Notes under the pieces: model-generated
What the model was told of the DNA's origin: nothing
Seen by the model: the letters and a program-made list of their open reading frames with translations, nothing else
Database searches by the model: none
Made by a program: the position numbers and the translations under genes
Shown here: piece by piece, positions 1 to 16,552 of the stretch
Numbering within the stretch: the stretch's first letter is position 1
Layout of the letters: each line of letters opens with the position of its first letter
From: a virus
Taxonomy: Duplodnaviria > Heunggongvirae > Uroviricota > Caudoviricetes
Reading direction: 5' to 3' (one strand)
Length of the DNA: 16,552 nucleotides
IMG/VR virus record: IMGVR_UViG_2585427768_000007

Positions 1-1020
1 CTACTTACTGACCACAAGCGGCAAATCCAGTGTTGGTGTGATTTTGGTTTTACGATCGTAAATCAACACCTGATTTTCTGTTTTGTGTCCACTGAAAATT
101 TGTTTGTCGCGACTGCTGCCTTCGTAATCTGAAATCCCTTTGGCTTTTATGTCATGAAAATTACATCCGAACGGAACGCCTGCTTTTTGCTCGGCTGCGC
201 GTTTAGCCTGATTCCACCAGTTGTTCAGCGTTTTAGCGATGACTTTCCCGCCTTTGGTTGTGCTGATCACATACTCGCATGTGCCGGAAGATACATTTCG
301 GGCTAACTGGATCGCCGTACGTAATCGCGGAGACCATTCCTTGATTTGTTTGGTGCCTGTTTTGTTTTGCTCAATGTAGATCCCTTTATCCATAATATCC
401 TGCCATTTCAGCTCGAGAACATCACCGAGCCTTGCCGCACAAAGATAGGAAATCTCCATTGCAATGCGTAACTGTGGAATTGCTTCCGCGTATATCGCCG
501 CATACTGTTCATCGGTTATGTAAACAGTGCGGGCTTTAAGCGTGAATTTTCTGACGCCTTTGCATGGATTATTTTTCACATACCCACGCTCATATCCCCA
601 TCCGTATACGCGACTCAGGCTTGCCAGCTCATGGTTTGCCTGGGTCTTGCTCTCAAGTCCCCGCTTATCCATGAAAATTCTTACTTGCTCAATTTTTACA
701 TTATCAGCAAGCACTTTACCGAATACCGCCAGCAACGCCCTCTGATGTTGTCGATAATCTTTTTGGGTTCGGGGTGCCAGTTCTGTAAATGCAGGGGAGT
801 CCATAAACATGTGCCATAATTTAGCGACGGTCATTATGTTGTGGAGTTTTGCTTTTTCCAGTTCATAATTTTGCCAGACTTTAGCTACGCTGGTTTCCCG
901 TACTCTTCCGAGCCCTATAGTTCTTGTGCTTCCTTCGGGTTTCCACACGTAACTGTAACCATTCGATCTAACACGCGGTGGTAGTGCATTATCTTTTTTG
1001 TTTTTTCTTGGTCTTCCCAT
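1..1020 (-). CDS. int: Phage tyrosine integrase (lambda Int-like site-specific recombinase)
   Basis: 339-aa ORF with tyrosine-recombinase C-terminal signatures (AARLGDV arginine region, HDIKAKG region, LIYDRK tyrosine region). Stop codon at 1-3, so the att site lies outside the window. Start overlaps the upstream xis ORF by 32 nt, as in lambda. Confidence 0.9.
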   Translation of the reverse strand: MGRPRKNKKDNALPPRVRSNGYSYVWKPEGSTRTIGLGRVRETSVAKVWQNYELEKAKLHNIMTVAKLWHMFMDSPAFTELAPRTQKDYRQHQRALLAVFGKVLADNVKIEQVRIFMDKRGLESKTQANHELASLSRVYGWGYERGYVKNNPCKGVRKFTLKARTVYITDEQYAAIYAEAIPQLRIAMEISYLCAARLGDVLELKWQDIMDKGIYIEQNKTGTKQIKEWSPRLRTAIQLARNVSSGTCEYVISTTKGGKVIAKTLNNWWNQAKRAAEQKAGVPFGCNFHDIKAKGISDYEGSSRDKQIFSGHKTENQVLIYDRKTKITPTLDLPLVVSK

Positions 1021-1240
1021 TGTTCAGCGCCTCAAAATCGGGTTCAGCGGAAACCAGCTCAGCTGCTTTTGGCATCGTTGTCAGTCCGTGTGGAATATCC
1101 CTGCGAAGAACTATTGGTTCGTTTTTAGGACCGATTACAAATGGGATGCCGTGCAGCCTTAACTGGTGTTGCTGTTTTGTGTATCGCTCGTATTTCGTGA
1201 TCTCTTGAATCTCTGCTGGCGATAGAGTTAATTCGTACAT
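989..1240 (-). CDS. xis: Excisionase-like small DNA-binding protein
   Basis: 83-aa basic ORF immediately upstream of int and overlapping its start; lysine-rich C-terminus. Assigned by position and size, not by a recognised motif. Confidence 0.6.
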   Translation of the reverse strand: MYELTLSPAEIQEITKYERYTKQQHQLRLHGIPFVIGPKNEPIVLRRDIPHGLTTMPKAAELVSAEPDFEALNNGKTKKKQKR

Positions 1241-1306
1241 GTGGTCACGTGCCTTACAGCATGACCGCCGCCAATATAATTCAGAGACGGCGATCAGGGT
1301 TGAACA

Positions 1307-1849
1307 TTAAAAATCAACCGGATTCGGGATCAGTTTTTGCCAGATTGCTGAAACGTATTTTGCCTGGTGACGGGCGTCATCCAGTGCATTGTGGCGAACG
1401 CCTTCGAATGGAATAACGGTTCTAGCATCAAAGTCGATTGTTTTTCCCAGCTCAACGATTGTGCGTACATCGCGATCGTTGTGGTAGCGCCACGGGCAGG
1501 GGATTCCCTGTCGTTCGTATGAACGGCGTAAAATTACGTTGTCGAAACTGGTTCCGTTGCCCCAGACCTGAACAAAAAACTCACCAGAGTTTTCGTCGAT
1601 AAATTCCCGTAATTGTAACAGTGCATCATCTAACGGGATTTCATCAGCCAGAATGGCAGACTGCGCTTCGCGCGATTGCTTAAGCCACCACTTAACGGTG
1701 TCCCGATCAATGACACCGCCAGCAGTATCCAGATCGATAGTCTTACTAAATTCCGGTCCCATATCTCCGGTTTGCGGATCGAAAAATATTGCACCTATTG
1801 AGATGATCGGGGCATCAGGATTTTTTCCCATGGTTTCAAGGTCGATCAT
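1307..1849 (-). CDS. DEDDh-type 3'-5' exonuclease (DnaQ/RNase T-like), phage early protein
   Basis: 180-aa ORF with Exo I motif MIDLETMG (D and E), Exo II region VWGNGTSFD and Exo III motif HNALDDARH. Confidence 0.75.
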   Translation of the reverse strand: MIDLETMGKNPDAPIISIGAIFFDPQTGDMGPEFSKTIDLDTAGGVIDRDTVKWWLKQSREAQSAILADEIPLDDALLQLREFIDENSGEFFVQVWGNGTSFDNVILRRSYERQGIPCPWRYHNDRDVRTIVELGKTIDFDARTVIPFEGVRHNALDDARHQAKYVSAIWQKLIPNPVDF

Positions 1850-1856
1850 CAGATGG

Positions 1857-2063
1857 TCACACGTCCTGCTGGTGGATATGATTATGATGACTGTTCACCG
1901 CAATTAAGGGATTTGCCATCTCGCCAGTTTCATCACCGCTATCGCCATGCTGAGCGCCACCAGCGCTCTCCTTACGAGAATGCGCAGCGCCTTCCATTTC
2001 CTCCGAATCTTTTTCAACCAGATACTCTTCATCGAATGTTTCCTGATATGTTGCGTCACCCAT
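1857..2063 (-). CDS. Small acidic hypothetical protein
   Basis: ATG at 2063 overlaps the TGA stop (2056-2058) of the upstream segment (ATGGGTGA), suggesting translational coupling. The longer 72-aa form starting at 2075 is possible. No recognised domain. Confidence 0.4.
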
Positions 2064-2334
2064 AACAGCCCACAATCAGGACAATTGCCGCCGCCAGCCC
2101 GACCGCAAGCAGTGCAGCTTTTTCCACTTCCTGTTGCGCCACTGGCTCTGACTGTTGCACTTCTGGCCCGTTTTGTAACGCATCCGGGCTGTTTTGTTCC
2201 GCTTTCTGGTAGTTCCGTTCCAATTCATGCTGATTCTGGTACACAGAATCGCGAGTCTGGATCCCCTCAACCCACTTCGGATCATTCGGGTCGCTAATTC
2301 CTTCAACAAATTCACCACGTGAGACAGCAAGCAC
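2056..2334 (-). CDS. C-terminal segment of phage early protein, with a hydrophobic helix ([17 protein letters not shown])
   Basis: Typical codon usage only in this frame. It opens at a GTG directly after an in-frame TAA with no Shine-Dalgarno, so it is more likely the tail of the upstream frameshifted gene than an independent gene. Confidence 0.4.
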
Positions 2335-2401
2335 TTATCGGCGTCAGGCTGGCTGATATTGGCTGCCTGCATAATTTTGTTTACTTCGTCAGCGGTAACT
2401 T

Positions 2402-3193
2402 TTACCGGCCCTGGTTGTGCGATCGTGTCAGATGCACCAGTATTTTGTTGTGAACCTGAGTACGTACCGTTTTTACGGGCGAAATATTCCTCTTTCGTGA
2501 TTTCAGTAGCCCCAGCGCCAGTGCCTTATCCAGACCAGAAAGTTTGTTTGCGCGACCGTATTTTTCGCCGTCCTTATCGGTGAAAAGGAAGTAGAACGGT
2601 CCCTCACGCTCTACAGATGGTTCGTCTTCCACTTCGCATTCGGTTTTTTCGTTGTCCGGCATTGCCGTTTCCACTGCATCAGTTTCTGGTACTGGTGACG
2701 GGAGAGTACCAGCTGTGCCCTGATTTGTTCCTTCGTCATCTTCAAACACGCCCTTGGTAGTCAGGTATTCAGTGATGTATTTGTTCAGTGCTACGGGATC
2801 TTTGTGAATGTCGATCGGACGCTCACGGACAAGGCCAAAAATAGTCTGACGGTCGTAGCGAACGGCATCAGGCTGTTTGCGCATTGATGCCGAAATACGC
2901 TTCCAGTCTTCGCGATCGTTGTCGATAACTTCATTTTTTGCCCAGCGATGGATGCTGCCGTCAATGTTTCCGGTATCAATATCGCCAGGCCAGAGAGCGT
3001 AGGCCAGTTCTTCATCCAGCGTTTTCCATGTCTGCTTGTATTCGCGACAAATGGCGGCAGTGACTGGGTTGATTTTTCCTGCTGAGTTTTCAGTGTTCTG
3101 TTGATTGACTCTGGCGCTGGCGAGATCAACAACAGACGTGTATTTTCCAGTCTCCTTGCGCTCACCGTCCCGACGTTTTTTCCAGATACGCAT
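2402..3193 (-). CDS. Middle segment of phage early protein (acidic), in -1 frame relative to the 3765 start
   Basis: 263-aa ORF. Protein-like composition and common codons from 3193 to about 2510; the last ~35 codons use rare codons (cta, cga, agg, ata, cgg) and look like out-of-frame read-through. ATG at 3193 is preceded directly by TGA. Confidence 0.45.
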   Translation of the reverse strand: MRIWKKRRDGERKETGKYTSVVDLASARVNQQNTENSAGKINPVTAAICREYKQTWKTLDEELAYALWPGDIDTGNIDGSIHRWAKNEVIDNDREDWKRISASMRKQPDAVRYDRQTIFGLVRERPIDIHKDPVALNKYITEYLTTKGVFEDDEGTNQGTAGTLPSPVPETDAVETAMPDNEKTECEVEDEPSVEREGPFYFLFTDKDGEKYGRANKLSGLDKALALGLLKSRKRNISPVKTVRTQVHNKILVHLTRSHNQGR

Positions 3194-3765
3194 TCAGCCT
3201 GAATTTCGGGCCATTTGGCACCAGGATTACATTTATGCTTAACCCACCCGATAGCAAACAGCTTAAGCTCCGGATACATAGCGTTAACATCAGGCATTTT
3301 CATCAACGCTTCAACGATATGCCCGTCAAAGGTAGCAACGTCTTCCTGCAACAATTCCTGCGCGCCAATAACCATATCAACGGTGATGTTTTCACATGTA
3401 CCGAACTTAACCAGGACAGCGTTCTGTACTTCAAGGGACAGCTTGTCAAAATTGACGTTCATCGGATCGGATTCAGTCTCAACCGGGACAAAGGAAGCAG
3501 ACTCCTCATCCCAGCGGTTTTCCTGCATATATTCAGCATCCCAGGAATCGAGGGCAGGGCGGGGTATACCGGGTTTATCCTCGCAGACAAGAAATTTATA
3601 AGCGCAGTCCTGAGCAGCCGGATAATGTTCCAGGAATTGCCAGTGAAATTTTGCGCGGGCGCGACGTTCATCACCGGCTTCAATGGCAGTGGCTACAGCG
3701 ACGGCACCTTCTTCCTTTATTGCCTGTTCGTCCGGAATAGCGGCGCAAATAAAGACTTTACTCAT
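2791..3765 (-). CDS. N-terminal segment of phage early protein (first ~197 codons genuine, remainder out of frame)
   Basis: Shine-Dalgarno GAGGT upstream of ATG 3765. Composition is protein-like up to the A6 run at 3176-3181; after that the frame yields S/T/L/R-rich low-quality sequence while the -1 frame becomes protein-like. Confidence 0.5.
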   Translation of the reverse strand: MSKVFICAAIPDEQAIKEEGAVAVATAIEAGDERRARAKFHWQFLEHYPAAQDCAYKFLVCEDKPGIPRPALDSWDAEYMQENRWDEESASFVPVETESDPMNVNFDKLSLEVQNAVLVKFGTCENITVDMVIGAQELLQEDVATFDGHIVEALMKMPDVNAMYPELKLFAIGWVKHKCNPGAKWPEIQAECVSGKNVGTVSARRLENTRLLLISPAPESINRTLKTQQEKSTQSLPPFVANTSRHGKRWMKNWPTLSGLAILIPETLTAASIAGQKMKLSTTIAKTGSVFRHQCANSLMPFATTVRLFLALSVSVRSTFTKIP

Positions 3766-4032
3766 TTTGTTTTACCTCATTACAGATTTAAGGGTGAACA
3801 AATCCCTGCCATTGCTGGCATATAAGAATGAAACCGGATAATATGACGGACGGGTTAGCCAGCCGGGATTTCGTTATTAGCCTCGCGATACTTTATCGAA
3901 CGGGAAACAGTCACCGGGAATTTTCTGTTCGTCCCTACAGAACACACGATGACTTACTGTCAAAAATGACGGCAATAACAACTGGCTCACCCGAAACAAG
4001 AAAAACGGTCAGAACAAGTGCAAATGCTGAAG

Positions 4033-4221
4033 TCACTGCTGTTCTCCGATAATACCAAGTTCAAGAAGGGCAATTCTGGAAAGTATGGAATTATCATTGA
4101 GAAGATAAGGTTCATATTTTCTCATCTTAATGGCATCTTCAGTAAACTCCCGGTTACTGAGCAGAACACCAATATCAAAACAACCTTCAGACGTATTAAC
4201 GTTTGGTAATAACGTTTCCAT
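4033..4221 (-). CDS. dicB: Cell-division inhibitor DicB homolog
   Basis: 62-aa ORF beginning METLLPNVNTSEGCF...FTEDAI, matching my recollection of Qin DicB in length and N-terminal half. GAGGA 7 nt upstream of ATG. Lies directly downstream of DicF as in Qin. Confidence 0.8.
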   Translation of the reverse strand: METLLPNVNTSEGCFDIGVLLSNREFTEDAIKMRKYEPYLLNDNSILSRIALLELGIIGEQQ

Positions 4222-4392
4222 TATCGCGTCCTCAACAATGAATTTTGTGATGCGGTGCCTGGTGCCTCCAGGTGACGTTAACCAGTTAACAATTAACGCC
4301 GGATACAGAGAATCCACCCATAACACTGTTTTTGGTTTTAACTGTTCCGCGTGCGCTCAGCCGCATTCACCACATCACAAAATTCACTTTAA

Positions 4393-4448
4393 AAAGGGCG
4401 GCAGAGCAGTCACGGAGTAAAACTGATACCGCCAAACGTCACCAGAAA
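4393..4448 (-). ncRNA. dicF: DicF small regulatory RNA (ftsZ-targeting sRNA)
   Basis: Minus strand reads TTTCTGGTGACGTTTGGCGGTATCAGTTTTACTCCGTGACTGCTCTGCCGCCCTTTTT, which matches the E. coli DicF sequence as I remember it, including the terminal GC stem and U-tract. Confidence 0.8.
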
Positions 4449-4753
4449 ATTGATAACAGAGGGCGTTGCAGCGGGGTTGTCACTTAAGCGTATGGTCAAC
4501 CTGACAACCCGGTGTCCTCAACGGGGGAAGAAATACCCCCGCCATACTTACCGCCGCGCCATTTCGCGGATTGCCACAACCGGAAGCGCACGATCGAATT
4601 AAATTTAACGACGACCTATACAGAGAGACTAACTTCTCCGGGCGCTTTCGTGTTATGCCCTGACTTTTCAGGGATATATCCTTTTCAGTAAACTGTCAGT
4701 GCCGGATTCTTATCCGTGTCCGGCGCACGCACTCTACCTCACCTGTGAATAAA

Positions 4754-5128
4754 TTAATGATTAATCGATATTTTGTTGTTTGATTCAACTTTCCCATCGG
4801 ATGTGTGATGCTTTAAATCACAGGAATTAATACTGCTTGCTGTAAAATGATTTTCAAGGGGAGCTATTCGAATCCCTTTCTTTTTCATTAACAAGCCAAA
4901 TCCTTTATTAATGATGTCCATTAATTCCAGAAAGTATTTTTCATGTAAATCCTGGTTATCAGAGAGCTGCTTCTCTTCGTACAGCCCGATAAAGGCTCGG
5001 CGTACGTTACCGGATATATTGTCGATGGTTTCTTTTTCTACGGTACTCAGGTCAAGAGTCGCCAGTTGGGAACGAACTATATTCGCTGCCATTTCCTGGA
5101 ATTGCATTGGTAAATCTTTAAATTCCAT
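4754..5128 (-). CDS. Hypothetical protein (AT-rich insert between the ydfC-like gene and dicF)
   Basis: 124-aa ORF with GAGG 8 nt upstream of the ATG. Visibly more AT-rich than flanking phage genes. No recognised motif. Confidence 0.55.
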   Translation of the reverse strand: MEFKDLPMQFQEMAANIVRSQLATLDLSTVEKETIDNISGNVRRAFIGLYEEKQLSDNQDLHEKYFLELMDIINKGFGLLMKKKGIRIAPLENHFTASSINSCDLKHHTSDGKVESNNKISINH

Positions 5129-5150
5129 TATTAGCCTCGTTGGTTAGCTA

Positions 5151-5369
5151 TTAACGCGGGTATGTAATCATTCTGGCAATGCTTAATGCCGCTGCTTTTT
5201 CCAGATTAGTGATATCCTGCTCCAGAGCGGACAGATTTTCAGCCTGCTTAGCCCTGGCTTCATTGGCCCATTTCAGATCCTGCGCTGCATTAATTTTCTG
5301 GTGCATCCACTCATAAAGTTCATCATCGGTATAGTCTGGCGCGATGATGACGGGTTCTCGTTTCTGCAT
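5151..5369 (-). CDS. ydfC: YdfC-like small prophage protein
   Basis: 72-aa ORF with GAGGA Shine-Dalgarno. Same size and position as ydfC in the Qin ydfA-ydfB-ydfC-dicF-dicB operon. Confidence 0.6.
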   Translation of the reverse strand: MQKREPVIIAPDYTDDELYEWMHQKINAAQDLKWANEARAKQAENLSALEQDITNLEKAAALSIARMITYPR

Positions 5370-5398
5370 ACTGATTCCTCGCGGTGCTGTTTCGCTTA

Positions 5399-5528: not shown

Positions 5529-5684
5529 TCACTCACCTGAGTTTCTTTCCAGCCAGCGACGGGCACCATTTTCGGTTTTAAACGTTTTGCTTTTGGTATA
5601 CGTCATCGCGGTGAATGTGCCGTCCTGGTTGGGAAACACGCCGTACACCAGAGATTCATTGTTGCCAAGATCGATAGTATCCAT
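5529..5684 (-). CDS. ydfA: YdfA-like small prophage protein (51 aa)
   Basis: MDTIDLGNNESLVYGVFPNQDGTFTAMTYTKSKTFKTENGARRWLERNSGE. GAGG 7 nt upstream of this internal ATG. The longer 80-aa form starting at 5771 is possible but its N-terminal extension is low-complexity. Confidence 0.55.
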   Translation of the reverse strand: MDTIDLGNNESLVYGVFPNQDGTFTAMTYTKSKTFKTENGARRWLERNSGE

Positions 5685-10502: not shown

Positions 10503-11696
<1,194 letters not shown>

Positions 11697-11853: not shown

Positions 11854-12540
11854 ATGACCCCAATAAAAATATTTATGACTATTGCTGATTTCAAACGGCC
11901 TAAATTGGAACTCCCAAACGGGGCAAACAAACTACTACTGCACTCTTGCTGTGCTCCATGTTCCGGTGAAGTGATGGAGGCGCTTCAGGCCTCGGGAATC
12001 GACTACACCATCTTTTTCTACAACCCGAACATTCATCCTCAGAAAGAGTATTTAATTCGTAAGGATGAAAATATTCGCTTTGCTGAACAACACGGCGTGC
12101 CGTTTATCGATGCTGATTACGACACCGACAACTGGTTTGAACGTGCCAAAGGAATGGAATGGGAGCCTGAGAGGGGGATCCGTTGTACCATGTGTTTTGA
12201 CATGCGTTTTGAGCGGACAGCGTTGTACGCTGCTGAAAATGGTTTCAGTGTGATCAGCAGTTCACTGGGCATTTCACGCTGGAAAAATATGCAGCAGGTT
12301 AACGAGTGTGGGCGGCGAGCTGTTGCGCATTATCCGGGTATGGTGTACTGGGATTATAACTGGCGCAAGCAGGGCGGCTCGTCCCGTATGATTGAAATCA
12401 GCAAGCGCGAAAAATTCTATCAGCAGGAATATTGTGGCTGTGTGTATTCTCTGCGCGATACCAATCTACACCGCAAATCTCAGGGACGCCCTCTTATCAA
12501 AATTGGCCAACTCCACTACGGAAAAGAAGAGAAGGAGTGA
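11854..12540 (+). CDS. QueH-like protein (DUF208; epoxyqueuosine-reductase family), putative
   Basis: 228-aa ORF with [11 protein letters not shown] near the N-terminus, NPNIHP, RC..CF, and C-terminal [10 protein letters not shown], matching DUF208/QueH cysteine motifs as I recall them. Family assignment is from memory. Confidence 0.55.
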
Positions 12541-12610
12541 TTTTATGGATCACCTTTCTGATTGATTTCATATTGGCGAGGTGACGTGAGTTAAGTAGAA
12601 TTGCTGCGGG

Positions 12611-12635
12611 TGCCTGAGGCTGTCTGCCTCAGGCA
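12611..12635. promoter_or_regulatory. Perfect 10-bp inverted repeat (TGCCTGAGGC-TGTCT-GCCTCAGGCA) between the queH-like and methyltransferase genes
   Basis: GC-rich hairpin with no U-tract; each arm contains a CCTNAGG heptamer. Candidate attenuator, operator or RNA-stability element. Confidence 0.4.
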
Positions 12636-12718
12636 TGAACACCAAAAGGCAGATAGAGAAAGCCCCAGTTAACATTACGCGTCCTGTAAGACGCTCAACA
12701 TTAATCTGAGGCATATGG

Positions 12719-13843
12719 ATGCGGATGAAAGAATTAAATAAATTCAGAGTGATAGACCTCTTTTGTGGGGCAGGTGGATTATCTTATGGTTTTCTTCATG
12801 GAGAGATGTCTGACTACTTTGAAAGTATCCTTGCTATTGATAATAATGCTGCAGCTATAAATACCTACAATGCCAATTTTGGTTTGCATGGAGTTCAGGC
12901 AAATATTGAGGAGTGGGCATCCAGCAATACTGTTCCTGAGGCTGATGTGGTCATAGGTGGCCCCCCGTGTCAGGGATTCAGTTTATTAAATAAGAATCGT
13001 TATGGTGATCACCGAAGAGCATTGTGGGAGCCTTATATGGATGTCATTGAGCGTTCAAGGGCTTGTATGTTCGTCATGGAAAATGTCCCCGGATTGCTGA
13101 TAAGCGATGAGTTTGCGGACATTACGTTTAGAGCGAAATCCATGGGCTTTATTCTGCTTAATCCAATGGTGTTGAATACTGCTGACTATGGAGTACCTCA
13201 GACAAGAAAACGAACGATAGCAATCGGTATCAAACGAGAACTCTTCGATGTGCATAGTATTCCGGCGTTCCCGCCAGCACCAACGCATCGTTCCCCTGAT
13301 AAGGATGTCGCTTTGCCTGAATGGGTCTGTACGCGTGATGCAATTGGTGACTTACCTGCTCCTGTTGGAACTGATATTCGTAATGAACTTCCTCCGCTGA
13401 ACTTACATTTTGGGCGTAATCCCACACCTGTTTCTCTGGAGCGATATAAAGCGGTTCCACCAGGAGGTAACCGTTTCGATTTACAGAAAAAAAGACCTGA
13501 TATAACCCCGGCGTGCTGGCTAAAAAAGAAATCTGGAGGGACCGATTTGTTTGGACGTCTGTGGTGGGACAGACCTTCAGTAACGATTCGTACTGAGTTT
13601 TTCAAACCGGAGAAAGGGCGATATTTACATCCGGAAGAGGATCGGCCAATAACTCATCGTGAGGCAGCGAGATTAATGTCTTTTCCTGATAATTTCATTT
13701 TTACCGGTTCAAAAACTGAGATTGCAAAGCAGATCGGGAATGCTGTTCCACCGCTATTTGCGGCAAAAATCGCACAATATGTGTATGGAGTTTTGCAGGG
13801 ACGGTATAAGAATAACATCAGTAAGAATAGTCAAGCAGCCTGA
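12719..13843 (+). CDS. DNA (cytosine-5)-methyltransferase, Type II R-M modification subunit
   Basis: 374-aa ORF with canonical m5C motifs in order: I DLFCGAGG, IV GGPPCQGFS, VI ENV, VIII QTRKR, IX REAARLMSFPD, X GNAVPP. GAGG 8 nt upstream of the ATG. Confidence 0.9.
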   Translation: MRMKELNKFRVIDLFCGAGGLSYGFLHGEMSDYFESILAIDNNAAAINTYNANFGLHGVQANIEEWASSNTVPEADVVIGGPPCQGFSLLNKNRYGDHRRALWEPYMDVIERSRACMFVMENVPGLLISDEFADITFRAKSMGFILLNPMVLNTADYGVPQTRKRTIAIGIKRELFDVHSIPAFPPAPTHRSPDKDVALPEWVCTRDAIGDLPAPVGTDIRNELPPLNLHFGRNPTPVSLERYKAVPPGGNRFDLQKKRPDITPACWLKKKSGGTDLFGRLWWDRPSVTIRTEFFKPEKGRYLHPEEDRPITHREAARLMSFPDNFIFTGSKTEIAKQIGNAVPPLFAAKIAQYVYGVLQGRYKNNISKNSQAA

Positions 13844-13856
13844 AGGAAATCCAGAA

Positions 13857-14735
13857 ATGAATGGAGATTTGGTTGACAGCATAGTTGGTTTTGCTGAAGC
13901 CAGAAAGGAGTTTCATGCCCAATTGTTACTGAATACGCTCACAATTAATACTGCCGGAGTTGTTAGTAACGCAGATAGCAGTAACAAAAACAGTAAAGCT
14001 ATAGCAAGAGAAATTGCTCGCTTCTTGCAGGCTGAAACGATTGGTGAACGTGTTGCAGGGCAAACATCTGGTAATCAGTTTGAGAGTATCTGCGCAGAGT
14101 TTATAGAAAAAACCTTTTTTAAACTCAGCCACTTACGCCCTGGAAAATGGAATGTACATCAGGTTTCTGGTAGAAACAGATTAGAGATAGCTAAATATGA
14201 ACAATATGCCCATCTTATAGCATTGGATAGTGCTGCAAAAAGTAATCCTCAGCTAGCTGCTGCACTGGGGAGTGATTATACGATTTCACCAGATATTATT
14301 GTTGAAAGAGAACCTGAATGTGATCAAGTTATCAACAGTCCTGAATTACTGGTGGATGATTCTGTTACCCGCATGTCAGCTCTCAGGAGTTCGAATGGTG
14401 GGAAACCAATATTACACGCAAGTATTTCCTGCAAATGGACAATAAGAAGCGACCGGGCCCAGAATGCTCGTTCTGAGGCATTAAATCTTATTCGCAACCG
14501 TAAGGGAAATCTCCCTCATGTAATGGTTGTTACTGCTGAGCCTACTCCAAGTCGTCTGGCGTCTATTGCTCTTGGTACTGGTGATATAGATTGCGTGTAT
14601 CATTTTGCGCTTTATGAACTTATATCAGCAGTTGAAATACTGGGGCTCAGCGATGCAGCTGACATGCTTTCCGTGATGGTTAATGGTAAAAGATTAAAGG
14701 ATATTTCTGATCTTCCCTTGGATCTTGCAGTCTGA
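13857..14735 (+). CDS. Type II restriction endonuclease, putative (NgoMIV/Cfr10I-like PD...SxK...E arrangement)
   Basis: 292 aa from ATG 13857, 14 nt after the methyltransferase stop (the track ORF starting at 13722 overlaps the methyltransferase). P145-D146, S191-x-K193, E207: the D-to-K spacing of 47 and K-to-E spacing of 14 equal those I recall for NgoMIV (D140, K187, E201). Confidence 0.6.
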   Translation: MNGDLVDSIVGFAEARKEFHAQLLLNTLTINTAGVVSNADSSNKNSKAIAREIARFLQAETIGERVAGQTSGNQFESICAEFIEKTFFKLSHLRPGKWNVHQVSGRNRLEIAKYEQYAHLIALDSAAKSNPQLAAALGSDYTISPDIIVEREPECDQVINSPELLVDDSVTRMSALRSSNGGKPILHASISCKWTIRSDRAQNARSEALNLIRNRKGNLPHVMVVTAEPTPSRLASIALGTGDIDCVYHFALYELISAVEILGLSDAADMLSVMVNGKRLKDISDLPLDLAV

Positions 14736-14833: not shown

Positions 14834-14905
14834 CCTGGCATTCTGGTTTACAATCCACACGCCAGCCTGAACAACTGGCACCTGCTGCGCCAGCAGAGAA
14901 AACAG

Positions 14906-15184
14906 ATGGCGCACGATACCAAACCATACAATTCTGATAATTCAGCCGTCTTTGCCAGCAGGCACGGGCGGCGTTCTCATGCATTCAAATCTGACTGGTA
15001 TCAGCACGACCCCTGCACCGAAGAACAGGCTGAATGGCTGATTCAGTGTTACCGCAGGCGCGGATACGAGGTTAAGAAAGCCCTCACCCTCGATTATCGT
15101 CACTGGATAATCTACGTCAGACTCCCTTATTCCGAACGCCCACCGCGTCCGTCCCGCACATATCAGCAACGCATCTGGAGGTAA
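14906..15184 (+). CDS. Hypothetical small protein
   Basis: 92 aa from ATG 14906; the track ORF start at 14825 overlaps the terminator. Several rare arginine codons; ends about 30 bp before the IS66 truncation point. Weak call. Confidence 0.3.
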   Translation: MAHDTKPYNSDNSAVFASRHGRRSHAFKSDWYQHDPCTEEQAEWLIQCYRRRGYEVKKALTLDYRHWIIYVRLPYSERPPRPSRTYQQRIWR

Positions 15185-15214
15185 CGTGCGGGTATTACTT
15201 CGACCTGTTCTGGT

Positions 15215-15682
15215 AAAGGCGCTGCTGATAAGCTCCAGTTGCTCTGACACATCACATCCCAGAGAACTGAGTTCACCACCACAGGCAGGACAGCATTCCT
15301 CTTCCGGCCGGATAACCCGGGTTTCACGGGGAAGTGAGGCCGGTAACGGTTTACGGGCTGAAGACTGGCGCAGGGCGGATGGCAGTACCGGGTCATATTG
15401 CTCACCCAGCGTTTCCGCCATTTCTTCCTGAAGTGCGCTGATTCGCTCCTGTGCTTCCTGTATCTGCCGTTCGGTTTTTGCACGAAGTTTTTCTGAGCTT
15501 TTACCGAACTGCATACGTTGCAGTTTCGCAACCAGCGCCTTCAGCCGGTTGATTTCGGAAGCATAAGCCGCCACCCGCTGTGAGAGCAGGCGGTTGTATT
15601 CAGCCATCTGGCGGATGGTGTCCTGTTGCGTCTGCAACAGTGCCCGCAGGCGGGCGTTCTCATGAGCAAGTGAGGTGTCCAT
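15215..15682 (-). pseudogene. IS66 transposase TnpC, N-terminal fragment only
   Basis: Starts MDTSLAHENARLRALLQTQQDTIRQMAEYNRLL, with leucine zipper and CxxC zinc finger (CCPACGG) as in ISEc8-like TnpC. Catalytic region absent; the track ORF continues to 14942 as out-of-frame read-through. Confidence 0.8.
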
Positions 15683-15701
15683 ATCCTCACTTTACAACGG
15701 G

Positions 15702-16049
15702 TTATATGCGGATTCCAGCGCGTTCCGTTCGTTTCGGGTGCTTCCAGTTGATACCTTCAAGAAGCATGGATAACTGAGCCGGAGTAAGGTGCACCTTGCC
15801 GTCACGGGTGACTGGCCAGACGAAGCGGCCCCGCTCCAGGCGTTTGGTGAAGAGGCACAGTCCGTCACTGTCAGCCCACAACACTTTTATCTGGTCACCC
15901 CGGCGTCCGCGGAAGATGAACAGGTGTCCGGAGAACGGGTCATCCTTCAGGACGTTCTGAACTTTTGATGCCAGGCCGTTAAAGCCATTTCGCATATCGG
16001 TGATACCTGCAACCAGCCAGATACGCGAACCTGCAGGGAGAGATATCAT
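15702..16049 (-). CDS. IS66 accessory protein TnpB (Orf2)
   Basis: 115-aa ORF MISLPAGSRIWLVAGITDMRNGFNGL..., typical IS66 Orf2. Start overlaps the tnpA stop (ATGA). Confidence 0.9.
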   Translation of the reverse strand: MISLPAGSRIWLVAGITDMRNGFNGLASKVQNVLKDDPFSGHLFIFRGRRGDQIKVLWADSDGLCLFTKRLERGRFVWPVTRDGKVHLTPAQLSMLLEGINWKHPKRTERAGIRI

Positions 16050-16552
16050 CAGTGGCTGCTCCCTTTTATTTCGCGGATAAGTGTCTGTAATAACGCCGGC
16101 GTCAGTTTACCTTTAAGCCTGAGAGTTCCGGCCGGCAGAACCAGCTCACAACACAGACTGTCGGACGGTGTATTTATCTGCTCTGGTTCCTGTGCGGGGG
16201 CCGGGATTTTATTATCCGGCTCCGGCGTTAACGTCACGGGAAGCAGTGCCGGCATATTTTTTCCGGAAGGCAGCAGGCCACCTTTCCGGTATTGATGGCG
16301 CCAGTTGAAGAGCAGGTTATCGTTGATTCCGTTTTCCCGGGCGATCTGCGCCACACAGGCTCCGGGCTGCAGTGACTGCTCCACTAAGGCGATTTTAAAC
16401 TCATAAGGGAAGTTGGGCCGCCGGGGACGTTTTTTTACCACGGGGGCTTCGGATATAACGGTGCTTTCAGGACGTACGACTGGTACCGTGGAAAATTGTC
16501 CGTAAAGGCAGGCATCAAGTTCCTGCTCCGACATGCCTGCGGGCAAGGCCAC
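16049..16552 (-). CDS. IS66 accessory protein TnpA (Orf1), N-terminus at or beyond window edge
   Basis: HTH-containing IS66 Orf1-like sequence (...ACVAQIARENGINDNLLFNWRHQYRKG...). The likely ATG at 16534 (MSEQELD...) is inside the window, but the ORF is open to the window edge. Confidence 0.8.
   Translation of the reverse strand: MALPAGMSEQELDACLYGQFSTVPVVRPESTVISEAPVVKKRPRRPNFPYEFKIALVEQSLQPGACVAQIARENGINDNLLFNWRHQYRKGGLLPSGKNMPALLPVTLTPEPDNKIPAPAQEPEQINTPSDSLCCELVLPAGTLRLKGKLTPALLQTLIREIKGSSH

Follow-up and report, generated by a model that had tools for sequence, protein, structure and literature searches.

Frame breaks in a prophage exonuclease gene of an Escherichia coli draft genome probably reflect a chimeric assembly consensus

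When the reading frame of a prophage gene breaks repeatedly, with a canonical slippery heptamer close to the first break, is the gene recoded, decayed or altered by sequence assembly? The question is raised by a 16,552-nt stretch of viral DNA (Caudoviricetes; IMG/VR record IMGVR_UViG_2585427768_000007), here called the window, in which a first-pass annotation had described an early-region gene at 2056-3765 that stays open only through three successive -1 frame changes. The window lies on contig JORV01000108.1 from the draft genome of E. coli 7-233-03_S3_C3 (GCA_000713355.1), an ST10 genome in 172 contigs that was made from Illumina HiSeq 100-bp reads of sample SRS568336 with MaSuRCA 2.3.2, which combines super-reads with Celera overlap-layout-consensus assembly. 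The exact products of the ORFs in the affected region (KEN07471-KEN07474) match only this assembly and contig.

An exonuclease gene spread over seven frame segments

The gene belongs to the YdfE-type exonucleases, a family annotated in databases as 'exonuclease', '3'-5' exonuclease' or 'exonuclease VIII'. A tblastn search of the window with the protein of phage Tritos covered residues 1-822, spread over the frame segments, and the similarity is colinear along the full length, including the PF16473 domain, which matches both a 180-aa window ORF and the intact alleles. The surrounding gene order is dicF-dicB-ydfD-exonuclease-xis-int, with xis/int (1-1240) on one side of the exonuclease gene and ydfD/dicB on the other. 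The window gene has the same position as its YdfE-type homologues (TRITO_27 of Tritos, WP_160516748.1 of E. coli JKHS016 and the ydfE remnant of K-12 Qin) and has in common with the family a Rv2179c-like DEDD domain and a CxxC...CxxC segment. Unlike these homologues, it is split over seven segments, blends two allele types and equals no sequenced allele.

Intact YdfE-type exonucleases of lambdoid prophages have 822-826 aa. The gene is a single ORF of 822-824 aa in Tritos, JKHS016, SCU-125 and 720632, well above the roughly 570 aa first proposed, and 9 of 10 prophages at yccA carry one ORF of 790-826 aa; the phrog_2082 match of the intact allele is also full length (1-822). The alignment to intact homologues that had been suggested as a check shows one intact gene in related prophages.

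Aligned with the intact alleles at the DNA level, the window gene shows six deletions that break the frame; one removes 2 nt and each of the others 1 nt (Table 1). The three -1 changes of the first-pass annotation are indeed present in the deposited sequence, but the gene has six breaks and is longer than was thought. Both tblastn and alignment confirm that homology to the intact protein leaves the ATG 3765 frame for the ATG 3193 frame, where deletion 1 creates TGA-ATG and the new frame opens, as described, directly after a stop codon; that a second -1 change lies close to the G4 run (2510-2513); and that a third, reported near 2335, is located at about 2333/2334. Nor is 2056 the end of the gene. 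It contains three further breaks (about 2117-2123, 2068-2071 and 1876-1884), the last of which brings the reading into register with the ORF of the C-terminal domain, and it runs on to a stop codon at 1307-1309. The 20-residue 'hydrophobic helix' taken for the C terminus is an out-of-frame reading of the 22-residue CxxC...CxxC segment of the intact alleles, and it appears because the 2334 frame downstream of deletion 4 reads this Zn-ribbon segment out of frame. Similarly, the C-terminal domain was annotated as a separate protein, KEN07471.1, only because of the frame breaks upstream. Putting the 7 missing bases back yields one 821-codon ORF with no internal stop and no further decay.

Table 1. 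Coordinates of the features discussed, in positions of the window
Feature	Coordinates	Strand	Description
Hybrid zone	1616..4011	.	Window alternates JKHS016-type and Qin-type bases
Whole exonuclease gene (YdfE-type, phrog_2082)	1307..3765	-	Seven frame segments; colinear with intact homologues
C-terminal DEDD 3'-5' exonuclease domain (Rv2179c-like, PF16473)	1307..1849	-	Deposited as the 180-aa KEN07471.1
ydfD (DUF1482, lysis protein)	3855..4036	-	Broken across three frames; base-by-base JKHS016-type/Qin-type hybrid
A_AAA_AAC heptamer / A6 run	3176..3182	-	Not the shift site; same length in all intact homologues
Deletion 1 (1 nt)	3192..3194	-	GAA-TG vs GAAATG (Qin-type) or GAATTA (JKHS016-type); column 579 of the gene alignment, column 1081 of a second alignment
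Deletion 2 (1 nt)	2510..2517	-	GGCGCTGGGGCTACTG vs GGCCCTGGGAGCTACGG (JKHS016), GGCTGCCGGGGCTACTG (E2855, Qin-type); alignment column 1262
Deletion 3 (1 nt)	2332..2335	-	GATAAG-TGCTT vs GATAAGTTGCTT or GATGAACTGCTT; alignment column 1440
Deletion 4 (1 nt)	2117..2123	-	AAAAAG-CTGC vs AAAAAAGCTGC (JKHS016) or AAAAAGTCTGC (Qin-type); alignment column 1657
Deletion 5 (1 nt)	2068..2071	-	TGTGG-GCTGTT vs TGCGGGCCTGTT or TGTGGCGCGGTG; alignment column 1706
Deletion 6 (2 nt)	1876..1884	-	CATCAT--AATCATATCC vs CATCATAAATACATATCC or CATCACGAAATCACATCC; alignment columns 1902-1903

The slippery heptamer and the first frame junction

Programmed -1 frameshifting at A_AAA_AAC, with further recoding downstream, would lead to a full-length protein. 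Consistent with this, GG A_AAA_AAC at 3182-3176 is a canonical X_XXY_YYZ heptamer and is in phase with the upstream 3765 frame, as the first-pass annotation had noted, and a -1 slip at this site would reach the 3193 frame, altering only four residues. With its A-rich, in-phase heptamer of this form near an ORF overlap, the window resembles programmed -1 sites such as those of dnaX (A_AAA_AAG), the IS3-family transposases and lambda G/GT. In contrast to such programmed sites, the heptamer of the window is not the frame junction. The first change had been assigned to the A6 run, but the actual break is the missing base at 3192-3194, 12 nt upstream; homology changes frame there, and the residues MRIW (3193-3182) are already in the new frame. 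Only this 1-nt deletion puts the heptamer in phase with the frame upstream of it. Intact homologues carry the identical A6 run in a different phase, reading GGAAAAAACG as TGG AAA AAA CGN (W-K-K-R), and the two-frame architecture is not conserved, with one continuous ORF in Tritos, JKHS016, SCU-125 and 720632.

The remaining evidence points the same way. Pseudoknot-free folding found no stimulatory RNA structure, since the 91 nt downstream of the heptamer fold at -20 kcal/mol, no better than shuffled sequence (mean -21.1, z = +0.35). The five further breaks have no slippery sites, one of them would require a +1/-2 change, and the 0 frame stays open for about 128 codons past the heptamer. Programmed frameshifting, ranked least likely from the outset, is effectively excluded.

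Two parental alleles between near-identical flanks

The same prophage also lies at yccA in E. coli JKHS016, where the 822-aa exonuclease and ydfD are both intact; the JKHS016 allele is at NZ_CP147059.1:2217536-2220473. Compared with JKHS016, the window shows zero differences at 370-1500 and four substitutions (4515-4536) without gaps at 4250-5389, while the intervening 1500-4250 accounts for the other 144 substitutions (of 148 in 370-5389) and for every one of the 15 gap openings. Over the other 10.8 kb, 46 mismatches separate the two, without a single indel, and the remaining window ORFs equal those of JKHS016 in length. The two are thus near-identical and indel-free outside approximately 1500-4250, with almost all differences in the exonuclease gene and ydfD, and within the prophage substantial divergence from JKHS016 is confined to the hybrid zone. 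The best identity of 94.6% had raised the suspicion that the window came from another species; its chromosomal flank is 100% E. coli.

Bases that depart from JKHS016 come almost entirely from a second allele type, carried by K-12 Qin, strain 720632 and phage Tritos; one allele of this Qin type is at NZ_CP025842.1:591083-593839. Within the gene, 93-94 of the 107 sites unlike JKHS016 carry the Tritos/720632 base, and E2855 has the same base as the window at 41 of the 42 such sites that it covers. Similarly, the K-12 Qin base is present at 73 of the 79 JKHS016-differing sites in 2995-4240, and about 3 to 7 substitutions match neither parent in the panel, which counts against an artefact. The parental type switches 88 times across 360 informative sites in the gene, compared with 20 and 40 switches when the same scoring is applied to SCU125 and PPompW, two natural alleles. 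In ydfD, where JKHS016-type and Qin-type alleles are only 58% identical, there are 32 switches. The zone includes this segment yet omits the last 300 nt of the exonuclease gene (approximately 88% identical), and its extent is therefore not obviously predicted by a simple similarity-threshold merge, a point that counts against an artefact.

Length changes follow the same two parents. Across ydfD and the adjoining spacer (3830-3984), the window has the length of the shorter allele at each of the 8 allele length differences, four with the JKHS016 allele longer and four with the Qin-type allele longer. All six deletions in the exonuclease gene fall on columns that are polymorphic between the two alleles, for which an analytic null allowing for homopolymer runs gives 0.21-0.46 per event. 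Five of the six lie inside gap-pair-tolerant loci, defined as places where an alignment of the two alleles that contains compensating 1-nt gaps needs no more edits than one without them. There are 25 such loci, which account for 5.5% of the columns; deletion 6 is the only one of the six to lie outside them. Checked by hand, a rule that merges the two alleles and drops the gap columns returns the exact window sequence at deletions 2, 3, 4 and 5, and at deletion 2 both half-gap columns have been lost. The rule also fits deletion 1, although there the gapped alignment costs one edit more than the ungapped one (for an idealised Qin-like sequence). Deletion 6 is fitted only incompletely; this 2-nt event at 1876-1884, which the simple rule does not reproduce, counts against an artefact. 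As tests for a chimera, then, the flanks fit one real allele with divergence confined to the repeated module, nearly every base derives from one parent or the other with short-range interleaving, and length changes sit where the parents have different lengths or admit a gapped alignment, always in the shorter direction (8/8; 5/6; 6/6).

The hybrid allele was found nowhere else. Among 5426 complete E. coli genomes, the best match was 91.2% for 1750-2400 (8246 places), 96.0% for 2400-3500 and only 95.8% for a 141-nt piece of the window. An old pseudogene allele imported whole was considered and rejected, as no donor was found in these 5426 genomes for the whole region or for the 651-, 1101- and 141-nt segments. 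ORFs with frameshift-specific tails form singleton clusters among approximately 15 billion proteins, all from a single assembly, and none of the frameshifts recurs in either collection.

Origin and meaning of the hybrid

We consider it very probable, from comparison of the sequences, that the frame changes are an assembly artefact, a chimeric consensus of two paralogous copies, and not biological frameshifts. Reads or unitigs of a second, diverged dicB-ydfD-exonuclease module of Qin type would have been merged into the contig; at each alignment column the consensus would then take the base of one of the two alleles, and it would discard columns filled by one allele only. The outcome would be a blended sequence that lacks a few nucleotides at each place where gaps had been opened to align the alleles. 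We infer the Qin-type copy in the same strain from its ST10/phylogroup A background and the hybrid composition, and likewise the assembler step responsible for the merging. Chimeric misassemblies of collapsed repeats by overlap-layout-consensus have the same signature of perfect unique flanks, a column-wise mix of two copies and lost columns that become small deletions, and MaSuRCA has a Celera consensus stage of this kind. Compared with typical collapsed repeats, the merged copies would be unusually divergent in ydfD. The recommended bacterial setting of MaSuRCA (cgwErrorRate 0.25) tolerates high divergence on merging. Consensus sequences built by MaSuRCA from Illumina reads are as a rule accurate, and the contig is unbroken through the region; both points also count against an artefact.

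The idea of a non-biological origin therefore survives from the first-pass annotation, in a different form from the homopolymer errors it had suggested. Raw base-calling indels at the A6 and G4 runs, carried into the consensus, would agree with all private length changes being deletions and with the short runs that are touched (A3 to A2 at 3193, T2 to T1 at 2333 and A6/A5 at 2119-2123). Yet homopolymer indels are not a typical error of the HiSeq platform, the A6 run at 3176-3181 keeps its full length, and most of the deletions lie outside long homopolymers. Such errors would also spread along the contig, the other 10.8 kb of which is indel-free in the comparison, and they leave the 107 substitutions toward the second allele unaccounted for, making this reading hardly credible. 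A genuine pseudogene, in which a hybrid allele with six deletions and a broken ydfD would have arisen in the cell when the yccA prophage recombined with a Qin-type copy, with small deletions at the same time or later, is a stronger contender but still unlikely, and the three 1-nt deletions once attributed to it are five of 1 nt plus one of 2 nt. The deposited sequence does contain the breaks, and indel errors are rare in Illumina assemblies. Real inactivation is also known elsewhere in the exonuclease family, which counts against an artefact: K-12 ydfE carries IS2E, E2855 carries IS1203, the gene is split in L011, and a 4-nt deletion is common to 11 records of PPompW phages, unlike the unique lesions of the window. 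However, flanks identical to an intact prophage imply very recent divergence, in which about eight independent indels within 2.5 kb are unexpected, and the private indel events of the window relative to four other alleles (6) about equal its private substitutions (8). The parental tracts average tens of bases and span the most diverged segment, ydfD, where homologous recombination is not expected. Nor would a pseudogene be expected to take the shorter state at every ydfD length difference, alternately from each parent, to place five of its six deletions at edit-distance ties, or to lack a second occurrence in the genome and protein collections.

The hybrid could in principle be real DNA produced by fine-scale segmental gene conversion, with the yccA prophage receiving tracts of tens of bases from a cryptic prophage of Qin type resident in the same cell; out-of-register junctions would then leave 1-5-nt deletions where the templates differ in length. 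This would resemble cassette-based antigenic variation, here acting on a prophage exonuclease/ydfD module, and we regard it as very improbable. If the hybrid were nevertheless true DNA, it would represent an unusual short-tract conversion process between prophages.

Under the favoured explanation, a chimeric consensus, the underlying locus is most likely an ordinary, intact YdfE-type exonuclease gene of approximately 822 codons beside an intact ydfD, as in JKHS016, and the four 'putative exonuclease' fragment proteins KEN07471-KEN07474 are probably artefacts. Flanks identical to an intact relative, base-by-base interleaving of two parents and consistent adoption of the shorter state wherever the parents differ in length together offer a reusable diagnostic for such cases. 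For this family the case is a caution that consensus assemblers can blend diverged, multi-copy dicB-ydfD-ydfE modules into apparent multi-frameshift pseudogenes, and that a blended module can mimic a recoding site when an A-run of lysine codons lands in X_XXY_YYZ phase.

Extent and frame structure of the exonuclease gene

The ORF list, a tblastn search of the window with the intact phage Tritos homologue (TRITO_27, 823 aa) and a five-way DNA alignment (A1) together reveal one colinear minus-strand gene, running from an ATG at 3765 to a stop at 1307-1309 through seven frame segments. Putting back seven bases yields an 821-codon ORF without interruption. The same three sources confirm the first three frame changes described in the first-pass annotation, whose stretch covers only the 5' two-thirds of the gene; its intact length of about 570 aa gives way to 822-824 aa in intact homologues. 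The first break, previously placed at the A6 run, lies 12 nt upstream of it, and GGAAAAAACG is equally long in every intact allele, encoding W-K-K-R. What had been read as a hydrophobic C-terminal helix is a CxxC...CxxC segment read out of frame, past the fourth deletion.

Coordinates of the features in the window
Feature	Position	Strand	Basis or remark
1-nt losses versus intact alleles	~3192-3194, 2510-2517, 2333, 2117-2123, 2068-2071	-	A1
2-nt loss versus intact alleles	~1876-1884	-	A1
C-terminus of the same exonuclease gene	ORF 1307..1849	-	PF16473, DEDD 3'-5' exonuclease
ydfD (DUF1482 / lysis protein), split over three frames	3855-4036	-	ORF list
dicB, upstream of ydfD	4033-4221	-	
DicF sRNA, upstream of ydfD	4396-4447	-	Rfam RF00039, 76.7 bits
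IS5 insertion, full 338-aa transposase	10535-11551	+	
QueH	11854-12540		just ahead of methyltransferase/endonuclease pair
sok-antitoxin RNA match	12608-12788	+	RF01794, 61 bits versus gathering score 59
C5-cytosine methyltransferase and NgoMIV-family restriction endonuclease pair, prophage-borne	12719-14735		
IS66-family element (TnpA-like HTH protein, 115-aa TnpB, 246-aa N-terminal TnpC fragment)	14942-16552	-	

Intact versions belong to phrog_2082 ('exonuclease') over their full length and have an Rv2179c-like domain at the C-terminus. In lambdoid prophages the family lies between dicF-dicB-ydfD and xis-int; one member, ydfE of K-12 Qin, is a pseudogene cut off by IS2E. With DicF and dicB upstream of ydfD, the Qin-like dicF-dicB-ydfD-ydfE module is complete in this prophage, at a different chromosomal site (yccA). 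With more than 8,000 gene copies in 5,426 complete E. coli genomes, up to nine in each, the gene is a common diverged repeat. In ten yccA prophages, the exonuclease genes beside the same xis/int share the Rv2179c-like C-terminal domain, to which at least two kinds of N-terminal module are joined: either YdfE_N plus YdfE_C, or Exonuc_VIII (Pfam names). When the JKHS016 and Tritos exonucleases were scanned against Pfam, the C-terminal domain alone was reported. In one of the ten (GCA_974481825.1, 2064-4434) the exonuclease is called as two ORFs, 267 and 331 aa long and separated by 570 nt. Elsewhere in the window, the sok match immediately precedes the methyltransferase/endonuclease pair and runs into the start of the dcm-like gene (12719-13843).

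Comparison with intact alleles

In E. coli JKHS016 this prophage likewise sits at yccA, and its 822-aa exonuclease and ydfD are both intact. Across 370-5389 the window differs from JKHS016 by 148 substitutions and 15 gap openings, of which 144 and all 15, respectively, fall within approximately 1500-4250; 370-1500 shows no differences, and 4250-5389 shows four substitutions (4515-4536) and no gaps. The other 10.8 kb compared contains 46 mismatches and no indels, and all other genes have the ORF lengths of JKHS016. Such near-identical flanks and equal ORF lengths imply that the two prophages split very recently, yet one 2.5-kb stretch is heavily changed. Small substitution clusters at 5616-5659 and 4515-4536 (seven and four sites) in otherwise identical surroundings may represent short patches of natural conversion, or the same blending on a minor scale. 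In JKHS016 the same IS5 insertion is missing 113 nt (10888-11000 of the window), and its product is only 285 aa long. Homology to the JKHS016 prophage stops at 15215, with 31 mismatches clustered just before (14900-15163).

The changed stretch is a mixture of JKHS016-type and Qin-type alleles. At 93-94 of the 107 gene sites unlike JKHS016, the window carries the Qin-type base (Tritos, strain 720632); E2855 matches at 41 of the 42 such sites it covers, and K-12 Qin at 73 of 79 over 2995-4240. Private to the window, relative to four other alleles, are eight substitutions and six deletion events. The parental state switches 88 times over 360 informative sites, a very short-range interleaving, compared with 20 switches in SCU125 and 40 in PPompW, both natural alleles, under the same scoring. 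ydfD is a base-by-base hybrid, with 32 switches where the parental alleles are 58% identical. No real allele comes close to the blend: across all complete E. coli genomes the best identity is 91.2% for 1750-2400, 96.0% for 2400-3500 and still 95.8% for a 141-nt piece.

Placement of the deletions and competing explanations

All six deletion events fall on columns where the parental types differ (0.21-0.46 per event under a run-aware null). Five lie inside 25 short gap-pair loci, where inserting a compensating 1-nt gap pair aligns the two alleles at an edit cost no higher than without gaps. These loci make up 5.5% of columns, and at least five hits by chance has an estimated probability of ~1e-5 (one-column margin). 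By hand check in A1 and a further alignment (A3), the window at deletions 2-5 is exactly what remains when the two alleles are merged column by column and both half-gap columns are left out. In 3830-3984 (ydfD and spacer) there are eight length differences between the parental alleles, JKHS016 being longer at four and the Qin type at four, and the window has the shorter state at all eight. In a recombinant, each tract has the length state of the parent that supplied it; the shorter state throughout, with parents alternating within 155 nt, is that of a consensus discarding columns held by half the sequences.

A genuine pseudogene is improbable. It would need the two alleles to have been interleaved in vivo on a fine scale, across DNA of 58% identity, and some eight or more indels to have arisen although the rest of the prophage is identical to its intact counterpart; no relative has any of the lesions. 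Inactivation of this exonuclease gene does happen in nature, but it looks different: IS insertions (K-12, E2855), or the 4-nt deletion common to 11 PPompW phage records. In these EHEC O26 phages the gene carries the deletion (AT----GCAGCC, A1 columns 1403-1406) and is annotated as frameshifted, the same gene being annotated in eleven independent records; here the family has a pseudogene that is genuine and inherited, against which the window can usefully be set. Raw homopolymer errors are more doubtful still, being unfit for Illumina data, with the A6 run unchanged and indels absent from the other 10.8 kb compared with JKHS016. Programmed frameshifting, also raised by the first-pass annotation, has next to no chance of being right: homologues are single ORFs, the break lies off the heptamer, five more breaks follow, and structure downstream of the heptamer does not exceed expectation (z +0.35). 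The heptamer's X_XXY_YYZ phase (two lysine codons) arises because a base is missing upstream.

A probable chimeric consensus in the source assembly

The exact fragment ORFs occur in a single record, contig JORV01000108.1 of GCA_000713355.1 (E. coli 7-233-03_S3_C3; KEN07471-KEN07474), and the window's chromosomal flank is 100% E. coli. The genome's description names the strain as an ST10 commensal of phylogroup A from a child in Tanzania; its Illumina HiSeq reads, 100 bp long, were assembled by MaSuRCA 2.3.2 into 172 contigs (PMC6222053).

Most likely, and with considerable confidence on this comparative evidence, the frame breaks reflect a chimeric consensus of two paralogous copies. During overlap-layout-consensus assembly, reads or unitigs of a second, Qin-type dicB-ydfD-exonuclease copy would have been combined with the copy in the yccA prophage, and voting by column would have given rise to both the blended sequence and the deletions. 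Both the Qin-type copy, plausible in a strain of ST10 (the K-12 lineage), and the assembler stage responsible for the merge are inferred. For bacterial genomes the MaSuRCA documentation advises merging at a permissive error rate. A chimeric consensus fits less well with a hybrid zone that takes in the very divergent ydfD yet ends before the gene's last 300 nt, with a 2-nt deletion outside the simple dropped-column rule, and with a few substitutions that equal neither parent in the panel. That the breaks are not biological, one of the options in the first-pass annotation, is most likely right, with consensus blending in place of homopolymer error as the cause. The multi-frameshift gene is most likely not a real feature, and the case is useful as a diagnostic pattern for blended paralogues in draft assemblies.
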